NCBI RefSeq assembly: GCF_022846255.1
Contig: NZ_AP025682.1
Reading direction: 5' to 3' (one strand)
DNA length: 64,000 nt
Source of the DNA: Escherichia coli
GTDB taxonomy: Bacteria; Pseudomonadota; Gammaproteobacteria; Enterobacterales; Enterobacteriaceae
Part shown: piece by piece, positions 12,677 to 48,474 of the stretch
How the letters are laid out: each line of letters begins with the position of its first letter
Position numbering within the stretch: position 1 is the stretch's first letter
Program-made: the position numbers and the translations under genes
The notes under the pieces: model-generated
Told to the model about the DNA's origin: nothing
What the model saw: only the letters and a program-made list of their open reading frames with translations
Databases searched by the model: none

Positions 12677-12902
12677 GCAATAGTGTTAGCCGTGAGTTTT
12701 CACGCTCCGCCCTATAAGTCGGATGAATGGAATAAAATGCATATCGGATTGGGTGAAAGTGAAAAAGAAAAAAGCAGGAAATGTCTGCAATTATTGATAC
12801 CGAACGACCATTCCCCTCCAGAACCATAGAAAATAAAAATGCACATACTTTGACTTTTAATTCAAATAAACCGTTTGCGCTGACAAAATATTGCATCAAA
12901 TG

Positions 12903-12931
12903 CTTGCACCGCTTCTGGCTATGAGTATAAT
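12903..12931 (+). promoter_or_regulatory. pyrLBI sigma70 promoter
   Basis: -35 cTTGCAc and -10 TATAAT separated by ~17 bp, ~30 bp upstream of pyrL ATG. Confidence 0.7.
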
Positions 12932-12956
12932 GCCGGACAATTTGCCGGGAGGATGT

Positions 12957-13091
12957 ATGGTTCAGTGTGTTCGACATTTTGTCTTACCGCGTCTGAAAAA
13001 AGACGCTGGCCTGCCGTTTTTCTTCCCGTTGATCACCCATTCCCAGCCCCTCAATCGAGGGGCTTTTTTTTGCCCAGGCGTCAGGAGATAA
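12957..13091 (+). CDS. pyrL: pyrBI operon leader peptide
   Basis: 44-codon ORF MVQCVRHFVLPRLKKDAGLPFFFPLITHSQPLNRGAFFCPGVRR overlapping the attenuator hairpin. Confidence 0.92.
   Translation: MVQCVRHFVLPRLKKDAGLPFFFPLITHSQPLNRGAFFCPGVRR
13045..13071 (+). terminator. pyrBI attenuator (rho-independent terminator inside pyrL)
   Basis: agcccctcaatcgaggggct hairpin followed by T8 run, 24 bp before pyrB ATG. Confidence 0.9.
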
Positions 13092-13094
13092 AAG

Positions 13095-14030
13095 ATGGCT
13101 AATCCGCTATATCAGAAACATATCATTTCCATAAACGACCTTAGTCGCGATGACCTTAATCTGGTGCTGGCGACAGCGGCGAAACTGAAAGCAAACCCGC
13201 AACCAGAGCTGTTGAAGCACAAAGTCATTGCCAGCTGTTTCTTCGAAGCCTCTACCCGTACCCGCCTCTCTTTCGAAACTTCCATGCACCGCCTGGGTGC
13301 CAGCGTGGTGGGCTTCTCCGACAGCGCCAATACATCACTGGGTAAAAAAGGCGAAACGCTGGCCGATACCATTTCGGTTATCAGCACTTACGTCGATGCG
13401 ATAGTGATGCGTCATCCGCAAGAAGGTGCGGCGCGCCTGGCCACCGAATTTTCTGGCAATGTACCGGTACTGAATGCCGGTGATGGCTCCAACCAACATC
13501 CGACACAAACCTTGCTGGACTTGTTCACCATTCAGGAAACCCAGGGGCGGCTGGAAAATCTGCACATTGCGATGGTCGGTGACCTCAAATATGGCCGCAC
13601 CGTTCACTCCCTGACTCAGGCGCTAGCGAAGTTCGACGGCAACCGTTTTTACTTCATCGCGCCGGACGCGCTGTCAATGCCGCAATACATTCTGGATATG
13701 CTTGATGAAAAAGGGATCGCCTGGAGTCTGCACAGCTCTATTGAAGAAGTGATGGCGGAAGTAGACATCCTGTATATGACCCGCGTGCAAAAAGAGCGCC
13801 TGGACCCGTCCGAGTACGCCAACGTGAAAGCGCAGTTTGTTCTTCGCGCCAGCGATCTCCACAACGCCAAAGCCAATATGAAAGTGCTGCATCCGCTGCC
13901 GCGTGTTGATGAGATTGCGACGGATGTGGATAAAACGCCTCACGCCTGGTACTTCCAGCAAGCAGGCAACGGGATTTTCGCTCGCCAGGCGTTACTGGCA
14001 CTGGTTCTGAATCGCGATCTGGTACTGTAA
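13095..14030 (+). CDS. pyrB: Aspartate carbamoyltransferase catalytic subunit
   Basis: 311-aa ORF with STRTR and HPLP motifs; AGGAGA RBS. Confidence 0.96.
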
Positions 14031-14963: not shown

Positions 14964-15020
14964 TCTTGATGGAAATCCGGGCTATCATGCCCGGATTAAG
15001 TCTAATGACAAACGCAAAAT

Positions 15021-15110
15021 TGCCTGATGCGCTACGCTTATCAGGCCTACGTGATTCCTGCAATTTATTGAATTTGTAGGCCTGATAAGGCATTTACGCC
15101 GCATCCGGCA
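15021..15110. repeat. REP elements
   Basis: tgcctgatgcgctacgcttatcaggcctac and gtaggcctgataaggc...gcatccggca. Confidence 0.75.
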
Positions 15111-15168
15111 TGAACAAAGCTCACTTTGTCTGCAATCTGATTCCGGGCCACCATGCCCAGTTTATTCT

Positions 15169-24968: not shown

Positions 24969-24990
24969 TCTTCACTCTGTGTTAAGCAAA

Positions 24991-25115
<125 letters not shown>

Positions 25116-28228: not shown

Positions 28229-28332
28229 GCCGGATGCGGTGCACCTGTAGGCCTGATAAGACGCATCAAGCGTCGCATCAGGCACTATGCTCAAATGCCG
28301 GATGCGACGTGAACGCCTTATCCGGCCTACAC
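28229..28332. repeat. REP/BIME cluster
   Basis: tgccggatgcg...gtaggcctgataagacgcatcaagcgtcgcatcaggc...tgccggatgcgacgtgaacgccttatccggcctaca. Confidence 0.8.
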
Positions 28333-28358
28333 ACACTCTATCAGGCTGAGGCTGTGAA

Positions 28359-34459: not shown

Positions 34460-34487
34460 GGTTTCCCCCGGTGTAAAGCGTGCTCCC

Positions 34488-34590
34488 AGTAGGCATGATA
34501 AGACGCGGTAAGCGTCGCATCAGGCTTCAGCGCACAACCGCCGGATGCGGCGCGAGCGCCTTATCCGGCCTACGAATCGGCATCAGGCAT
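34488..34590. repeat. REP elements
   Basis: gtaggcatgataagacgcggtaagcgtcgcatcaggc / gccggatgcggcgcgagcgccttatccggcctac. Confidence 0.8.
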
Positions 34591-34598
34591 AGCAACCC

Positions 34599-35555
34599 TC
34601 AATACCCCATATTTTTCTTCTTCTCTAACTCTTCTTTTGCGGTATCAGGCAGATAAAGGGTGGATTTGGTCAGCGTTAGCTTTTCAGGCATGGTGCCGTC
34701 TTTTTTGTATTTCTCCAGCGCGTCGAAAGCAGGACCTGCCATGTTCGGCGTCAGTTCAACGCTGGCGTTCGCTTCGCCATCAATCATCGCTTTGTAGATG
34801 TCCGGCACGCCGTCGATAGAGCCTGTCAGGATATCTTTGCCCGGTTTCAGGCCCGCTTCTTTAATTGCCTGAATTGCACCAATCACCATGTCATCGTTAT
34901 GGGCGTAAACCATGCAGATGTTTTTGCCGTTGTTTTCCGCTTTGATAAAGCTCTCCATCACTTCTTTGCCTTTGCTGCGGGTGAAGTCACCTGACTGCGA
35001 GCGGATAATTTTGATATTTGGCGCATTCTTTATGGCTTCGGCAAAGCCTTTCTTACGGTCAATGGCGACGCTGGCCCCAACGGTGCCCTGTAACTCAACC
35101 ACGTTACATGGTTTGCCGTTAACCTCTTTCACCAGCCAGTCACCGATCAACTTACCTTCGAGGATGTTGTCGGCAGTAACGGTGGTCATATAGAGAGATT
35201 TGTCTTTCACATCGATGGAACGGTCAAGCAAGAAGACCGGGATTTCGGCATCTTTCGCCTCTTTTAATACCGGTTCCCAACCCGTCGCCACCACCGGAGC
35301 GATAAAGATCGCATCCACCCCTTGTGCGACGAAGGAACGTACCGCTTTAATCTGGTTTTCCTGCTTTTGCTGACCATCGGCAATTTTCAGTGTGATACCG
35401 CGTTTTTCGGCTTCACTTTTCGCCACATTGGTTTCTGCGGCGCGCCAGCCGGATTCCGATCCGACCTGCGAAAATCCTACGGTTAATGGAGCGGCCAACG
35501 CCATAGACGACATGGCTGCCGAGACTGCAGAGACTACAAGTAAGCGTTTCCACAT
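34599..35555 (-). CDS. ytfQ: Periplasmic galactofuranose-binding protein
   Basis: 318-aa ORF with signal peptide (MWKRLLVVSAVSAAMSSMALA) and periplasmic-binding-protein fold signature. Confidence 0.92.
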   Translation of the reverse strand: MWKRLLVVSAVSAAMSSMALAAPLTVGFSQVGSESGWRAAETNVAKSEAEKRGITLKIADGQQKQENQIKAVRSFVAQGVDAIFIAPVVATGWEPVLKEAKDAEIPVFLLDRSIDVKDKSLYMTTVTADNILEGKLIGDWLVKEVNGKPCNVVELQGTVGASVAIDRKKGFAEAIKNAPNIKIIRSQSGDFTRSKGKEVMESFIKAENNGKNICMVYAHNDDMVIGAIQAIKEAGLKPGKDILTGSIDGVPDIYKAMIDGEANASVELTPNMAGPAFDALEKYKKDGTMPEKLTLTKSTLYLPDTAKEELEKKKNMGY

Positions 35556-35625
35556 AGGGTTGTCCTCGTCGGGGTAATTATTATTGGTGAAAAGATGTTC
35601 GCGAAAAAACTATAGACAATTCGTT

Positions 35626-35646
35626 ATGTAACGGATTGCGTTACAT
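35626..35646. promoter_or_regulatory. Palindromic candidate operator in ytfQ/ppa divergent region
   Basis: ATGTAACG-gattg-CGTTACAT (8-bp perfect arms) ~70 bp upstream of ytfQ start. Confidence 0.4.
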
Positions 35647-35864
35647 CACACTTCAAAAAAGTAAATAAAACGTTAATCACAAGTTTGTAATCGCTTTCAT
35701 CTCACTATGAAAAATGCGGCTACGGTTATGGATTTTCCTGCTCTGTATACCGTCTTAAAACTGGCGAAAAAGGAAAATGAAGACGAAAACAAGCGAAGAC
35801 ATTCGGCGCGAGTTGGCTATAATACTCGGCACTTGTTTGCCACATATTTTTAAAGGAAACAGAC

Positions 35865-36395
35865 ATGAGCTTACTCAACGTCCCTGCGGGTAAAGATCTG
35901 CCGGAAGACATCTACGTTGTTATTGAGATCCCGGCTAACGCAGATCCGATCAAATACGAAATCGACAAAGAGAGCGGCGCACTGTTCGTTGACCGCTTCA
36001 TGTCCACCGCGATGTTCTATCCGTGCAACTACGGTTACATCAACCACACTCTGTCTCTGGACGGTGACCCGGTTGACGTACTGGTCCCGACTCCGTACCC
36101 GCTGCAGCCGGGTTCTGTGATCCGCTGCCGTCCGGTTGGCGTACTGAAAATGACCGACGAAGCCGGTGAAGATGCGAAACTGATTGCTGTTCCGCACACC
36201 AAGCTGAGCAAAGAATACGATCACATTAAAGACGTTAACGATCTGCCAGAGCTGCTGAAAGCGCAAATCGCTCACTTCTTCGAGCACTACAAAGACCTCG
36301 AAAAAGGCAAGTGGGTTAAAGTTGAAGGTTGGGAAAACGCAGAAGCCGCTAAAGCTGAAATCGTTGCTTCCTTCGAGCGCGCCAAGAATAAATAA
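35865..36395 (+). CDS. ppa: Inorganic pyrophosphatase
   Basis: 176-aa [26 protein letters not shown]... Confidence 0.96.
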
Positions 36396-36409
36396 GTTCT
36401 TCTGGCGTA

Positions 36410-36450
36410 ATAACCCTGAACGCCGGGCTTCGGTTAGTAGGGGTTTTTTT
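36410..36450 (+). terminator. ppa terminator
   Basis: aaccc...ggggtt stem region followed by T7 run. Confidence 0.6.
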
Positions 36451-36749
36451 ATGCCCGCAATTTATAAACTCTCTACTCCACTATTATTATTTTCAGCAGT
36501 TTAAAGGCTTGAACGGTAAGAACAAGCTAAACTCGACCACCATTTTGCTGTTCATAGCCACTTGCTGGAAGTTAGCCGGCCTCACTCATACTCACCGTTC
36601 AAAGCGTGTCCCCGTTTTACCCCTGTACATTTGTTAACGCCAGCAGAGTTTTACATGCGTTAACGGATATGGAAAGCGGCTCGGAAGGAAAAGCAAAAGG
36701 CGAGGAAGTTACAAAAAAGAATACGCGTCGTCTCGCAAAAAAATAACGC

Positions 36750-36761
36750 CACCCGCAGGTG
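36750..36761. repeat. IS4 target-site duplication, left copy
   Basis: cacccgcaggtg, identical to 38188..38199. Confidence 0.85.
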
Positions 36762-38187
36762 TAATGCCGATCAGTTAAGGATCAGTTGACCGATCCAGTG
36801 GCTGTGTAAGAATCCGGAAACGCTCACTTGTTTCCGGATTTTTTTATGCACATTGGACAGGCTCTTGATCTGGTATCCCGTTACGATTCTCTGCGTAACC
36901 CACTGACTTCTCTGGGGGATTACCTCGACCCCGAACTCATCTCTCGTTGCCTTGCCGAATCAGGTACTGTAACGCTACGCAAGCGCCGTCTTCCCCTCGA
37001 AATGATGGTCTGGTGTATTGTTGGCATGGCGCTTGAGCGTAAAGAACCTCTTCACCAGATTGTGAATCGCCTGGACATCATGCTGCCGGGCAATCGCCCC
37101 TTCGTTGCCCCCAGTGCCGTTATTCAGGCCCGCCAGCGCCTGGGAAGTGAGGCTGTCCGCCGCGTGTTCACGAAAACAGCGCAGCTCTGGCATAACGCCA
37201 CGCCGCATCCGCACTGGTGCGGCCTGACCCTGCTGGCCATCGATGGTGTGTTCTGGCGCACACCGGATACACCAGAGAACGATGCAGCCTTCCCCCGCCA
37301 GACACATGCCGGGAACCCGGCGCTCTACCCGCAGGTCAAAATGGTCTGCCAGATGGAACTGACCAGCCATCTGCTGACGGCTGCAGCCTTCGGCACGATG
37401 AAGAACAGCGAAAATGAGCTTGCTGAGCAACTTATAGAACAAACCGGCGATAACACTCTGACGTTAATGGATAAAGGTTATTACTCACTGGGACTGTTAA
37501 ATGCCTGGAGCCTGGCGGGAGAACACCGCCACTGGATGATACCTCTCAGAAAGGGAGCGCAATATGAAGAGATCAGAAAACTGGGTAAAGGCGATCATCT
37601 GGTGAAGCTGAAAACCAGCCCGCAGGCACGAAAAAAGTGGCCGGGACTGGGAAATGAAGTGACAGCCCGCCTGCTGACCGTGACGCGCAAAGGAAAAGTC
37701 TGCCATCTGCTGACGTCGATGACGGACGCCATGCGCTTCCCCGGAGGAGAAATGGCGGATCTGTACAGTCATCGCTGGGAAATCGAACTGGGATACAGGG
37801 AGATAAAACAGACGATGCAACTGAGCAGGCTGACGCTGAGAAGTAAAAAACCGGAGCTTGTGGAGCAAGAGCTGTGGGGTGTCTTACTGGCTTATAATCT
37901 GGTGAGATATCAGATGATTAAAATGGCGGAACATCTGAAAGGTTACTGGCCGAATCAACTGAGTTTCTCAGAATCATGTGGAATGGTGATGAGAATGCTG
38001 ATGACATTGCAGGGCGCTTCACCGGGACGTATACCGGAGCTGATGCGCGATCTTGCAAGTATGGGACAACTTGTGAAATTACCGACAAGAAGGGAAAGGG
38101 CCTTCCCGAGAGTGGTAAAGGAGAGGCCCTGGAAATACCCCACAGCCCCGAAAAAGAGCCAGTCAGTTGCTTAACTGACTGGCATTA
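36762..38187 (+). mobile_element. Insertion sequence IS4 (1426 bp) with 18-bp imperfect terminal inverted repeats
   Basis: Left IR taatgccgatcagttaag; right IR reverse complement taatgccagtcagttaag (16/18); encodes IS4-type DDE transposase; flanked by 12-bp direct repeat. Confidence 0.9.
36846..38174 (+). CDS. insG: IS4 transposase (InsG-like)
   Basis: 442 aa from ATG at 36846 ([16 protein letters not shown]...); track ORF begins at an upstream TTG. Confidence 0.9.
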
Positions 38188-38199
38188 CACCCGCAGGTG
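38188..38199. repeat. IS4 target-site duplication, right copy
   Basis: cacccgcaggtg direct repeat. Confidence 0.85.
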
Positions 38200-38213
38200 G
38201 CGTGCTTTTATTA

Positions 38214-38555
38214 TTACTTATCCCTGTCTAACCAGTCGCCGCTTTCAATTAGCTTTAATCCATCGACGGGTCGTTGATAAACGTACATCCATGCACTCCC
38301 GTACGGCGTCTGAATCAACTGGCGCGCGTATTCACCGCCCCTGGTGCGCAAGGCATCAAGTTCGGCCAGCGTGGCGTTGTCAATACGATAAACTTCACCG
38401 TGTACTGTTCCGTTCCCCGGAACTGCGCCTGGATAGTGGCCCAGGCTATACAACTGGTAGTTATCGATACTGAAATCGCCCAGTAACTGGGCATTGGTCA
38501 TCCAGTGACTGTTGCCTTGTTTGTGGCGTAAACTGCCGTAGACAAATATTCGCAT
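38214..38555 (-). CDS. ytfP: Gamma-glutamylcyclotransferase-family protein YtfP
   Basis: 113-aa ORF MRIFVYGSLRHKQGNSHWM... (GGCT-like YGSL motif). Confidence 0.9.
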   Translation of the reverse strand: MRIFVYGSLRHKQGNSHWMTNAQLLGDFSIDNYQLYSLGHYPGAVPGNGTVHGEVYRIDNATLAELDALRTRGGEYARQLIQTPYGSAWMYVYQRPVDGLKLIESGDWLDRDK

Positions 38556-38557
38556 TG

Positions 38558-44229
<5,672 letters not shown>

Positions 44230-44912: not shown

Positions 44913-44958
44913 CGTTACGGGTACAAATGTAGATTGTTGATAAAGTGCATTTTGTTTA

Positions 44959-45058
44959 TGCCGGATACGGCGTAAACGCCTTGCCAGGCCTACAAAATCG
45001 TCCAAATTCAATATATTGCGGGGACTGCGTAGGCCTGTTCGGCATAGCGCATCAGGCA
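44959..45058. repeat. REP elements
   Basis: tgccggatacggcgtaaacgccttgccaggcctaca / gtaggcctgttcggcatagcgcatcaggca. Confidence 0.75.
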
Positions 45059-45234
45059 GTTTTTCATTTTTCAGCTGTCTGAATTTTAACCCTCTGGCGG
45101 CTTTACAGTACCTTACGCTATACTAGCCACTGAAAATGCCGGTTCACTTTCTTCGAATCGGCTTTCAATGTGTATTTCACACAAATTAATCAACTTCCCC
45201 TTCCGAGGATCTGGCCTGAAAGGTCGGATAAGAT

Positions 45235-47186: not shown

Positions 47187-47744
47187 ATGACCCTACGCAA
47201 GATTCTGGCACTCACCTGCCTGCTGTTGCCGATGATGGCTTCCGCACATCAGTTCGAAACCGGTCAGCGAGTGCCGCCGATTGGCATCACCGATCGTGGC
47301 GAGTTGGTGCTTGATAAAGATCAGTTTAGCTACAAAACCTGGAACAGCGCGCAGTTAGTGGGAAAAGTGCGAGTACTGCAACATATTGCTGGTCGCACCT
47401 CTGCAAAAGAGAAAAACGCGACGCTGATTGAAGCGATTAAATCAGCGAAGTTACCGCACGATCGTTACCAGACCACCACCATTGTTAACACCGACGACGC
47501 GATTCCGGGTTCAGGGATGTTTGTGCGCAGCAGTCTGGAGAGTAATAAAAAGCTTTATCCCTGGTCGCAGTTTATTGTTGATAGCAATGGCGTCGCACGC
47601 GGTGCCTGGCAGCTGGATGAAAAAAGTTCCGCTGTAGTGGTGCTGGATAAAGACGGTCGCGTGCAATGGGCCAAAGACGGGGCACTTACTCAGGAAGAGG
47701 TGCAGCAAGTGATGGACCTGCTGCATAAATTAATTAATAAATAG
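47187..47744 (+). CDS. ytfJ: Periplasmic protein YtfJ
   Basis: 185-aa ORF with signal peptide; 3' end overlaps cysQ 3' end by 11 bp. Confidence 0.88.
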
Positions 47745-48474
47745 ACACTCTGAACCCCGGATTCAGGAACGACTCGCGCGGAGTGTAATCCAGCGGTTTA
47801 CCCTGCCAGTCGTGAACGTGCGCTCCGGCAGCTGCAGCCACAGCATGACCAGCGGCGGTATCCCAAATATTCGTTGGCCCGAAACGCGGGTACAGCTGCG
47901 CCTGTCCTTCCGCCACCAGGCAGAATTTCAGCGAAGAGCCGATGGACGTGGTCTGATGTTCGCCAAGCTGTTGCAGATACTCTTTCAGCTCCGCATCTGC
48001 ATGGGAACGGCTGATCACCACCAGCGGCGGGCGCGCATCGCGGACCTGAATCTGCTTGCGCACACCGCACTCTTCTTTCCAGGCTTTGCCTTCTGCCGCG
48101 CTGTACATTACGTTCATTACCGGCGCATACACCACACCTAAAATCGGTTTACCGTGGTCGATGAGCGCAATGTTAACGGTGAATTCGCCATTACGTTTAA
48201 TAAACTCTTTAGTACCATCCAGCGGGTCTACCAGCCAGTAACGCTGCCAGTGCTGACGGACTTCCCAACCGGGAGGATCTTCTTCAGAAAGGACCGGAAT
48301 ATCCGGTGTCAGCGTACGTAAACCGTCCATGATAACGGTGTGAGCGGCAATATCCGCTGCCGTTACCGGAGAATTGTCCGCTTTGCTGACGACGTCCATC
48401 GGTTTCGTCCCGTCGTAGACCTGCATAATGGCATCGCCTGCATTCCGTGCAAGCTGGCATACTTGATCTAACAT
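47734..48474 (-). CDS. cysQ: 3'(2'),5'-bisphosphate nucleotidase
   Basis: 246-aa inositol-monophosphatase-family ORF (WLVDPLDGT motif). Confidence 0.93.

Follow-up and report, generated by a model that had tools for sequence, protein, structure and literature searches.

An intact IS4 in the predicted ytfP/ppa terminator hairpin of an Escherichia coli genome: a probable case of the element's own target preference

We describe a complete copy of the insertion sequence (IS) IS4 in a 64-kb stretch of Escherichia coli DNA (contig NZ_AP025682.1 of assembly GCF_022846255.1), which we call the window and whose coordinates are used throughout. The element lies between the convergent genes ytfP (- strand), the last of the tamA-tamB-ytfP row, and ppa (+ strand), in a hairpin that reads as a predicted bidirectional intrinsic terminator, and a perfect duplication of the top of that hairpin stands on either side of it. 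Taken as a whole, the evidence is best explained, in our judgment with high probability, by an IS4 that entered the ytfP/ppa terminator through its own target preference and that likely provides a substitute stop for the one it split. Population comparisons were made over 5,426 complete E. coli genomes; terminators, promoters, and hairpins are assigned here by prediction from sequence and folding.

Results

The element occupies 36762..38187 (+ strand), a length of 1426 bp. Its left terminal inverted repeat (IRL, TAATGCCGATCAGTTAAG, 36762..36779, +) and its right one (IRR, TAATGCCAGTCAGTTAAG, 38170..38187, -; the reverse complement ends the element) agree at 16 of 18 positions, as is expected of an element of about 1.4 kb with imperfect terminal inverted repeats (TIRs) of about 18 bp. 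Between them runs a single uninterrupted open reading frame (ORF) for an InsG-type transposase of 442 amino acids (36846..38174, +; ATG at 36846, stop codon at 38172-38174), whose product matches PF13006 (Nterm_IS4, 7.6e-33) and PF01609 (DDE_Tnp_1, 1.1e-31) in Pfam and the IS4 equivalog NF033592 in NCBIfam (304.5 bits, where the cutoff is 115). Spacers of 75 and 104 residues separate the catalytic D133, D209, and E314, and the YREK motif is intact at 307-321. The definition of the IS4 family (PMC2266710) asks for a D(60-110)D(100-150)E triad together with a Y(2)R(3)E(6)K motif, and the transposase falls within the family on both counts. An original prediction made from the letters of this DNA, which had called the element an intact IS4 of 1426 bp with 18-bp imperfect TIRs, is thus borne out, and this copy of IS4 is complete and apparently functional.

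The BLASTN-type comparison with reference IS4 that the prediction had proposed gives the same answer: the window copy is equal in length and 99.65% identical to the IS4 of K-12 MG1655 (NC_000913.3), from which it differs at 5 nucleotides. It is closer still to copies at fiu in strain SX4 and at ygcG/eno in strain CU568-3 (99.93%, a single nucleotide in each case), and a distance of one nucleotide to copies at other loci suggests recent mobility. Of four other E. coli copies in the comparison, three are 99.8-99.9% identical to the window copy, and that of strain GF130 is 99.0% identical. Against K-12 InsG the transposase shows two amino acid differences, A304 and L326 in the window versus G304 and R326 in K-12; since A304 and L326 are common to all five non-K-12 copies, it is the K-12 copy that stands apart among the six compared, and the reference IS4 may be an atypical, possibly less active, allele. 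IS4 sequence of some kind is present in about half of the complete genomes, with a maximum of 32 places in one genome.

Both sides of the element carry the perfect 12-bp direct repeat CACCCGCAGGTG (36750-36761 and 38188-38199), as had been claimed. The 12-mer occurs nowhere else in the window, where 0.01 copies would be expected by chance and where none of 100 shuffles held two or more, and 12 bp is within the 11-13 bp given for the target-site duplication (TSD) of IS4, other copies of which have 11-14 bp. A perfect duplication on both sides is not what misplacement of a repeated IS at the wrong locus by the assembler would leave. Two independent short-read assemblies (GCA_005387665.1 and one from run DRR322657) that encode exactly the window TamB match the window at 100% identity across about 10 kb, and both show the ytfP-duplication-IS4 junction, after which their contigs end inside IS4. 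Because the same junction is found in two independent assemblies, the insertion is not an assembly artefact, an explanation to which we assign a negligible probability; the insertion is real and common to all sampled close relatives.

When IS4 and one copy of the repeat were deleted in silico, the site aaaaaaataACGCCACCcgcaGGTGGCGTgcttttattatt was rebuilt. In the ytfP-sense RNA it forms an 8-bp GC-rich stem, ACGCCACC-UGCG-GGUGGCGU (-15.6 kcal/mol), with UAUUUUUUU behind it; read from the + strand, the stem folds at -13.8 kcal/mol and GCUUUUAUUAUU comes next. A tracts and U tracts thus flank the stem on both strands, which are the sequence features of an intrinsic terminator, and the rebuilt site reads as a predicted bidirectional intrinsic terminator between ytfP and ppa. 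In the window as it stands, the site is made up of a left arm (36737..36749: an A7 tract, TAA, and the lower stem CGC), the left TSD copy (36750..36761), which is the upper stem and loop of the hairpin, the right TSD copy (38188..38199), and a right arm (38200..38213: the lower stem GCGT, GC, and TTTTATTA) that extends up to the ytfP stop codon. The ytfP-sense hairpin is now cut to a 4-bp remnant of -5.8 kcal/mol with no U-tract. The claim that IS4 split a predicted ytfP terminator hairpin therefore stands, and the site of the hairpin had been placed correctly; its geometry, however, needs revision, for the stem has 8 bp rather than 6, and the 14 bp given as the distance of the terminator from the ytfP stop codon is the distance to the duplicated 12-mer, the stem itself beginning 10 nucleotides past the stop codon. 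The hairpin adjoins ytfP in every arrangement that we examined (C25, K-12, H22, and GF130). A 90-nucleotide query with the hairpin at its centre finds matches in 5,415 of the 5,426 genomes, and in 5,190 of them at least 80% of the uninterrupted 90-nucleotide core is kept in one piece, so the suggested comparison with IS4-free genomes finds IS4-free versions of the site by the thousand. A literature search for experimental support of a ytfP terminator found nothing.

That IS4 should have struck a terminator had been thought noteworthy, a view that fares poorly once other IS4 sites are considered. In junction searches, IS4 copies at unrelated loci aligned 22-35 bp past the IS4 end into the window flank. 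Nineteen distinct E. coli sites, aligned on the IS4 end, share with few exceptions an architecture in which an A-tract is followed by a G-C stem, a TSD of 11-14 bp that corresponds to stem top and loop, a second G-C stem, and a T-tract. The three base pairs outside the TSD are G/C in 16-17 of the 19 sites on the left and 13-16 on the right; beyond them come five positions at which 14-17 sites have A on the left and 11-17 have T on the right. The first comparison sites had been ranked partly by similarity of their flanks to the query and form a biased sample, and so two corrective samples were drawn. One comprised seven distinct sites chosen by internal IS4 sequence only, with the flank ignored; the other comprised 17 left half-sites from an exact-match scan of species-representative genomes, 16 of them from Kosakonia oryziphila and one from Photorhabdus khanii. 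The G/C positions recur in 6-7 of the seven unbiased sites, and A stands at the corresponding positions in 9-14 of the 17 half-sites (12-14 at four of the five positions). Mean hairpin energy over the first 14 sites, a figure subject to the query-flank bias, was -12.9 kcal/mol, compared with -3.8 for background. Among the unbiased seven, five are strong hairpins (-16.5 to -19.5 kcal/mol) directly 3' of crr, adhE, bamD, rpoD, and glcA, all but that of glcA being followed by a T-run of 6-7; the remaining two are a weaker plasmid site and the K-12 site in the KpLE2 region, which has no hairpin and yet fits the A/T-tract spacing. At random window positions, an A-run of at least 4 on one side with a T-run of at least 4 on the other occurs in 0.4%. 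The window site itself reads A7-TAA-CGC-[12 bp]-GCG-T-GC-TTTT, and in having G/C at positions 1-3 of either side, A at 4-5, and T at 4 it fits the profile. In the five unbiased hairpin sites, the upstream gene is oriented as the transposase is, with entry through the left end of IS4; a sample of five is too small to speak of an orientation bias, and the ytfP/esiB hairpin holds both orientations.

One could instead envision that IS4 inserts nearly at random and that terminators are what we see only because genic insertions have been removed by selection. Intergenic terminators are plausible low-cost sites, and in mutation-accumulation lines four of eight new IS4 insertions lay within coding DNA (PMC5009759). 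The geometry of the sites, however, is constant to the base, with three G/C, the A/T tract, and a TSD that covers stem top and loop; at one hairpin the same 12-bp duplication is found in both orientations (see below); and the hairpin-free K-12 site still keeps the spacing of the A and T tracts. Selection against genic insertions also cannot be the whole explanation, because insertions within the coding sequences of fiu and ecpA show the same left-side A-tract and G/C pattern, accompanied in fiu by the right-side T-tract. We thus regard near-random insertion as very unlikely and conclude from the compared sites that insertion into a terminator is normal target behaviour for IS4 and not a coincidence. 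A striking specificity in both target arms has been described for the IS4 subgroup (PMC2266710); the explicit link between IS4 targeting and intrinsic terminators is our own tabulation.

The same hairpin has been used by IS4 repeatedly. The spacer between ppa and ytfP (36396-38213) is variable and has three states or more, being short in the window and in C25, occupied by the chpS-chpB toxin-antitoxin genes in K-12, and occupied by esiB in H22, GF130, and Q5. In carriers of esiB, two near-identical hairpins flank that gene: hairpin A on the ppa side, with a CGCA loop, at the position of the predicted esiB terminator, and hairpin B on the ytfP side, with a CGAA loop. This duplication of the hairpin around esiB suggests that esiB is gained or lost by recombination there. 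In GF130, IS4 sits in hairpin A in the window orientation and with the same 12-bp TSD (positions 3201-4626 of the extracted locus), and differs from the window IS4 at 14 of 1426 positions; Q5 has a copy identical to that of GF130, at exactly the same position and with the same TSD, inverted (12263-13688 of its extracted locus; the K-12 MG1655 copy is at 2091-3516 of its own). The opposite orientations could reflect either two independent hits by one variant or a flip in situ; we considered in-situ inversion unlikely, the inverted repeats being only 18 bp long with two mismatches. In strain N32 (NZ_CM165895.1, about 4566763-4568548), which has some 20 IS4 copies, an inverted IS4 directly abuts ytfP, and both junctions match. 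With the window, these make four occupied alleles that would represent at least three separate events, as expected of a strongly preferred target. The ppa-ytfP hairpin is therefore a recurrent IS4 hot spot bordering a small variable region, which is empty in some strains and contains chpSB or esiB in others.

How the window allele itself arose is less straightforward. The IS4-ytfP right junction in the window orientation was found in none of the 5,426 complete genomes, and the left junction only in GF130, where esiB lies between IS4 and ytfP. IS4 may first have entered the esiB terminator (hairpin A), as in GF130 and Q5, with a segment of about 1.65 kb containing esiB later deleted against hairpin B, in which case the ytfP terminator was never hit. 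The loop of the window 12-mer is CGCA, as is typical of hairpin A in esiB carriers, while C25, the sole esiB-free genome with the same flanks, and K-12 have CGAA; an esiB-free, IS4-free site with the CGCA loop occurs nowhere among the complete genomes; esiB is present in all of the relatives that are nearest over 25 kb (99.3% identity); and two of these, GF130 and Q5, have IS4 in hairpin A. The crossover for such a deletion, however, would have to fall in a homology of 7 bp (AGGTGGC) or of 14 bp with one mismatch, and a deletion between the complete hairpins before IS4 arrived (19 bp, one mismatch) would be at least as easy and would yield the same sequence. Recombinant sites of this type that lack esiB do exist, C25 being an example. 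The 14 differences between the window IS4 and the GF130/Q5 copy, set beside a single difference from copies at unrelated loci, also count against a shared ancestral insertion. We consider the two-step history unlikely, although it deserves serious weight, and favour the order in which recombination between hairpins A and B lost esiB and left a CGCA hybrid into which IS4 inserted afterwards, because this order offers the longer homology and because the window variant is unlike the GF130/Q5 copy. Deletion of esiB by the transposase from an adjacent insertion was ruled out by the intact right-hand duplication.

Whichever order applies, the transposition was a simple insertion with a 12-bp duplication. 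That it was also recent had been read from the perfection of the repeat, which is nearly uninformative on age where divergence within the species is below 1%; a perfect TSD should not be taken as a sign of recency within a species. The conclusion nevertheless finds support elsewhere: because the insertion is absent from all complete genomes and its IS4 is one nucleotide from copies at other loci, a lineage-specific and fairly young event is supported. The claim of a recent simple insertion thus keeps its recency, on the population data and the one-nucleotide distance, and loses the argument from the repeat; simple insertion directly into the ytfP terminator is the likely history but not the only one.

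The transposase gene is on the + strand and ytfP on the - strand, so the former is, as had been stated, antisense to ytfP. It had been proposed from this that transcription past the split terminator would run far into IS4 and give antisense RNA across the transposase gene. The loss of the ytfP-sense hairpin to a 4-bp stem with no U-tract speaks for such read-through. What had been overlooked is a second structure inside the right end of IS4. On the ytfP-sense strand, beginning five bases inside the element, lies an inward-facing terminator-like structure (38148..38183, -; stem 38183..38158, followed by TCTTTTTCGG) that in RNA reads GCCAGUCAGUU-AAGC-AACUGACUGGC, an 11-bp stem of -17.5 kcal/mol followed by UCUUUUUC. 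It is an inverted repeat and the strongest terminator-like match of the region in a terminator scan. The run behind it is interrupted by C residues (TCTTTTTC), which makes some read-through plausible. In other genomes, one or the other end of IS4 faces the 3' ends of eno, metK, typA, clpB, rpoD, crr, adhE, and bamD, which fits with IS4 being tolerated behind such genes; the end with the 11-bp hairpin is the one that faces the highly expressed eno, metK, typA, and clpB, again suggesting tolerance. Read-through from ytfP far into the transposase gene therefore appears doubtful to us.

The left end of IS4 also carries a hairpin, formed by AAGAATCCGGAAAC and GTTTCCGGATTTTT and followed by a T-run that reaches the transposase ATG (36808..36846, +; an inverted repeat, with positions 36808-36843 folding at -18.3 kcal/mol). 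A candidate transposase promoter (36786..36813, +), recognized by its match to the consensus, consists of TTGACC, a 16-nucleotide spacer, TG, and AAGAAT and overlaps the left arm of this hairpin. Barriers to read-in transcription formed by terminators carried on ISs are a general concept (PMC2965389). By analogy with the layout in other ISs, in which transcripts that enter from outside fold into the full hairpin and are halted or silenced, the element's own transcript having its start within the hairpin, the 5' hairpin and T-run of IS4 probably act as a barrier to outside transcription.

Other features of the locus

ytfP (38214..38555, -) encodes a protein of the gamma-glutamylcyclotransferase family and was identified from its ORF, the RefSeq annotation of homologous loci, and Pfam GGACT; an NCBIfam search returned no family for YtfP. 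ppa (inorganic diphosphatase; 35865..36395, +), an ORF so annotated at homologous loci, converges with ytfP on the insertion and has a predicted terminator of its own at 36414..36449 (+), where an imperfect hairpin (-12.7 kcal/mol) precedes TTTTTTT. Between this terminator and the IS4 target is a 46-codon ORF with a GTG start (36606-36746, +), which ends 3 bp before the TSD; its DNA is conserved in genomes of the esiB type and the C25 type. The sole Rfam match over 35500-38700, an S15 leader within the 3' end of ppa, was below threshold (17.9 bits, gathering score 39.5; E = 0.54) and was treated as chance. At the cysQ/ytfJ boundary, GCA_005387665.1 differs from the window over about 220 bp (508-732 of its locus, window 47606-47822), and its ytfJ has 140 amino acids versus 185.

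Beyond Escherichia, the draft genome of the rice-associated Kosakonia oryziphila REICA_142 has at least 16 contigs that end in IS4 left ends about 98.5% identical to E. coli IS4 over about 345 bases, an apparent expansion of IS4 in that strain. A 265-bp contig of Methylobacterium mesophilicum NBRC 15688 joins an IS4 left end to the K-12-specific KpLE2 flank ttgttacaaacaCCAGAACCAAGAT and looks like contamination of the assembly with E. coli K-12.

Discussion

In the account that we prefer, a complete IS4, a cut-and-paste DDE transposon, would have transposed into the bidirectional terminator hairpin between ppa and ytfP, the end of tamA-tamB-ytfP. Its transposase would pick sites made up of an A-tract, three G-C pairs, 11-14 bp, three G-C pairs, and a T-tract, and would make its cuts in the two strands with an offset of about 12 bp. 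When the site is a terminator, these cuts would bracket the upper stem and loop, and repair would leave that segment as a direct repeat on either side of IS4. The ytfP-sense stem of 8 bp (-15.6 kcal/mol) and its U-tract would thereby be reduced to the 4-bp remnant (-5.8 kcal/mol) with no U-tract, and ytfP transcripts would mostly end at the inward hairpin five bases inside the right end of IS4, about 25 nucleotides beyond the old stop point. The hairpins presumably do terminate transcription, and the insertion would be near neutral.

Several points weigh against this account. The terminators at this locus, old and new, are predictions from sequence, and the interrupted T-run behind the right-end hairpin may make termination there partial. 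The exact empty site, with a CGCA loop and with neither esiB nor IS4, was found in 0 of the 5,426 genomes. The window site departs slightly from the profile of the other sites, with AA-T-A7 on the left and a single T followed by GC before TTTT on the right, so that its main A and T runs are displaced outward by 2-3 bp from their usual position. Among the comparison sites, the first 12 favoured flanks like the query, and the samples that correct for this are small (seven sites and 17 half-sites). Finally, the consensus to which IS4 sites might be held, a pseudo-palindromic AAA-N20-TTT, is one that IS4 reportedly prefers, and our literature searches on IS4 target choice retrieved nothing specific for it. 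IS4 is also said to have been found in the terminator of the pheST attenuator and at a hot spot in galT.

What we describe is a known element behaving as it is known to behave, and nothing here is outside what is known for IS4. The main value of the finding is a correct annotation of the locus, the effects on ytfP being probably small. The tabulated sites do offer a testable case for IS4 homing to bidirectional terminators, where it may replace the terminator that it destroys. More broadly, and as a speculative proposal to which we give only limited credence, IS4 could be a terminator-homing element with replacement terminators of its own, one that recognizes an A-tract, a GC palindrome, and a T-tract and whose inward stops lie about 5 and about 47 nucleotides inside its ends. 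If so, 3'-end formation by the host and insulation of the transposase would be kept in either orientation, which would explain both the persistence of IS4 directly downstream of genes that are highly expressed or essential (eno, metK, rpoD, typA, clpB, crr, adhE, and bamD) and the occupation of one hairpin in both orientations.

The nearest known system is the IS4 of K-12 (insG, b4278), which shares with the window copy its 1426 bp, the terminal 20 bases at both ends, the domains and 442-amino-acid length of its transposase, and a 12-bp TSD, and which differs from it at 5 nucleotides and 2 amino acids and in occupying a site without a hairpin in the KpLE2 region. With regard to the AAA-N20-TTT target that is said to be typical of IS4, the flanks we collected agree with it in having an A-tract and a T-tract about 18-20 bp apart around a TSD of 11-14 bp, whereas the main A and T runs of the window are about 24 bp apart, slightly further out.

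Other mobile elements are also drawn to palindromes or guarded by them. The extragenic palindromic repeats of the REP/BIME type are typical of E. coli intergenic regions, and the window has clusters of this type at 1085-1309, 6622-6733, 14995-15118, 24971-25079, 28244-28333, 34486-34573, and 44939-45084, none of which contains IS4. ISs that target REP/BIME sequences (IS1397, ISKpn1, and, within the IS4 family, ISRm22) prefer extragenic palindromic sequences (PMC1525189); in contrast to IS4, their target is the REP repeat and not a terminator flanked by A and T tracts. IS10/Tn10 and IS200 are protected by 5' RNA structures or terminators (PMC2965389), and IS4 likewise has a hairpin and T-run just before its transposase start; unlike them, it has a predicted inward structure at its other end too, and its part in this comparison is drawn from the predicted structures.

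A further parallel lies among the class C (IIC) group II introns, which are mobile elements that home to terminator stem-loops, presumed to be low-cost sites. These are retroelements, for which the stem-loop is recognized as single-stranded nucleic acid and insertion takes place directly behind it. IS4, a DDE transposon, instead splits the hairpin and leaves its top in duplicate.

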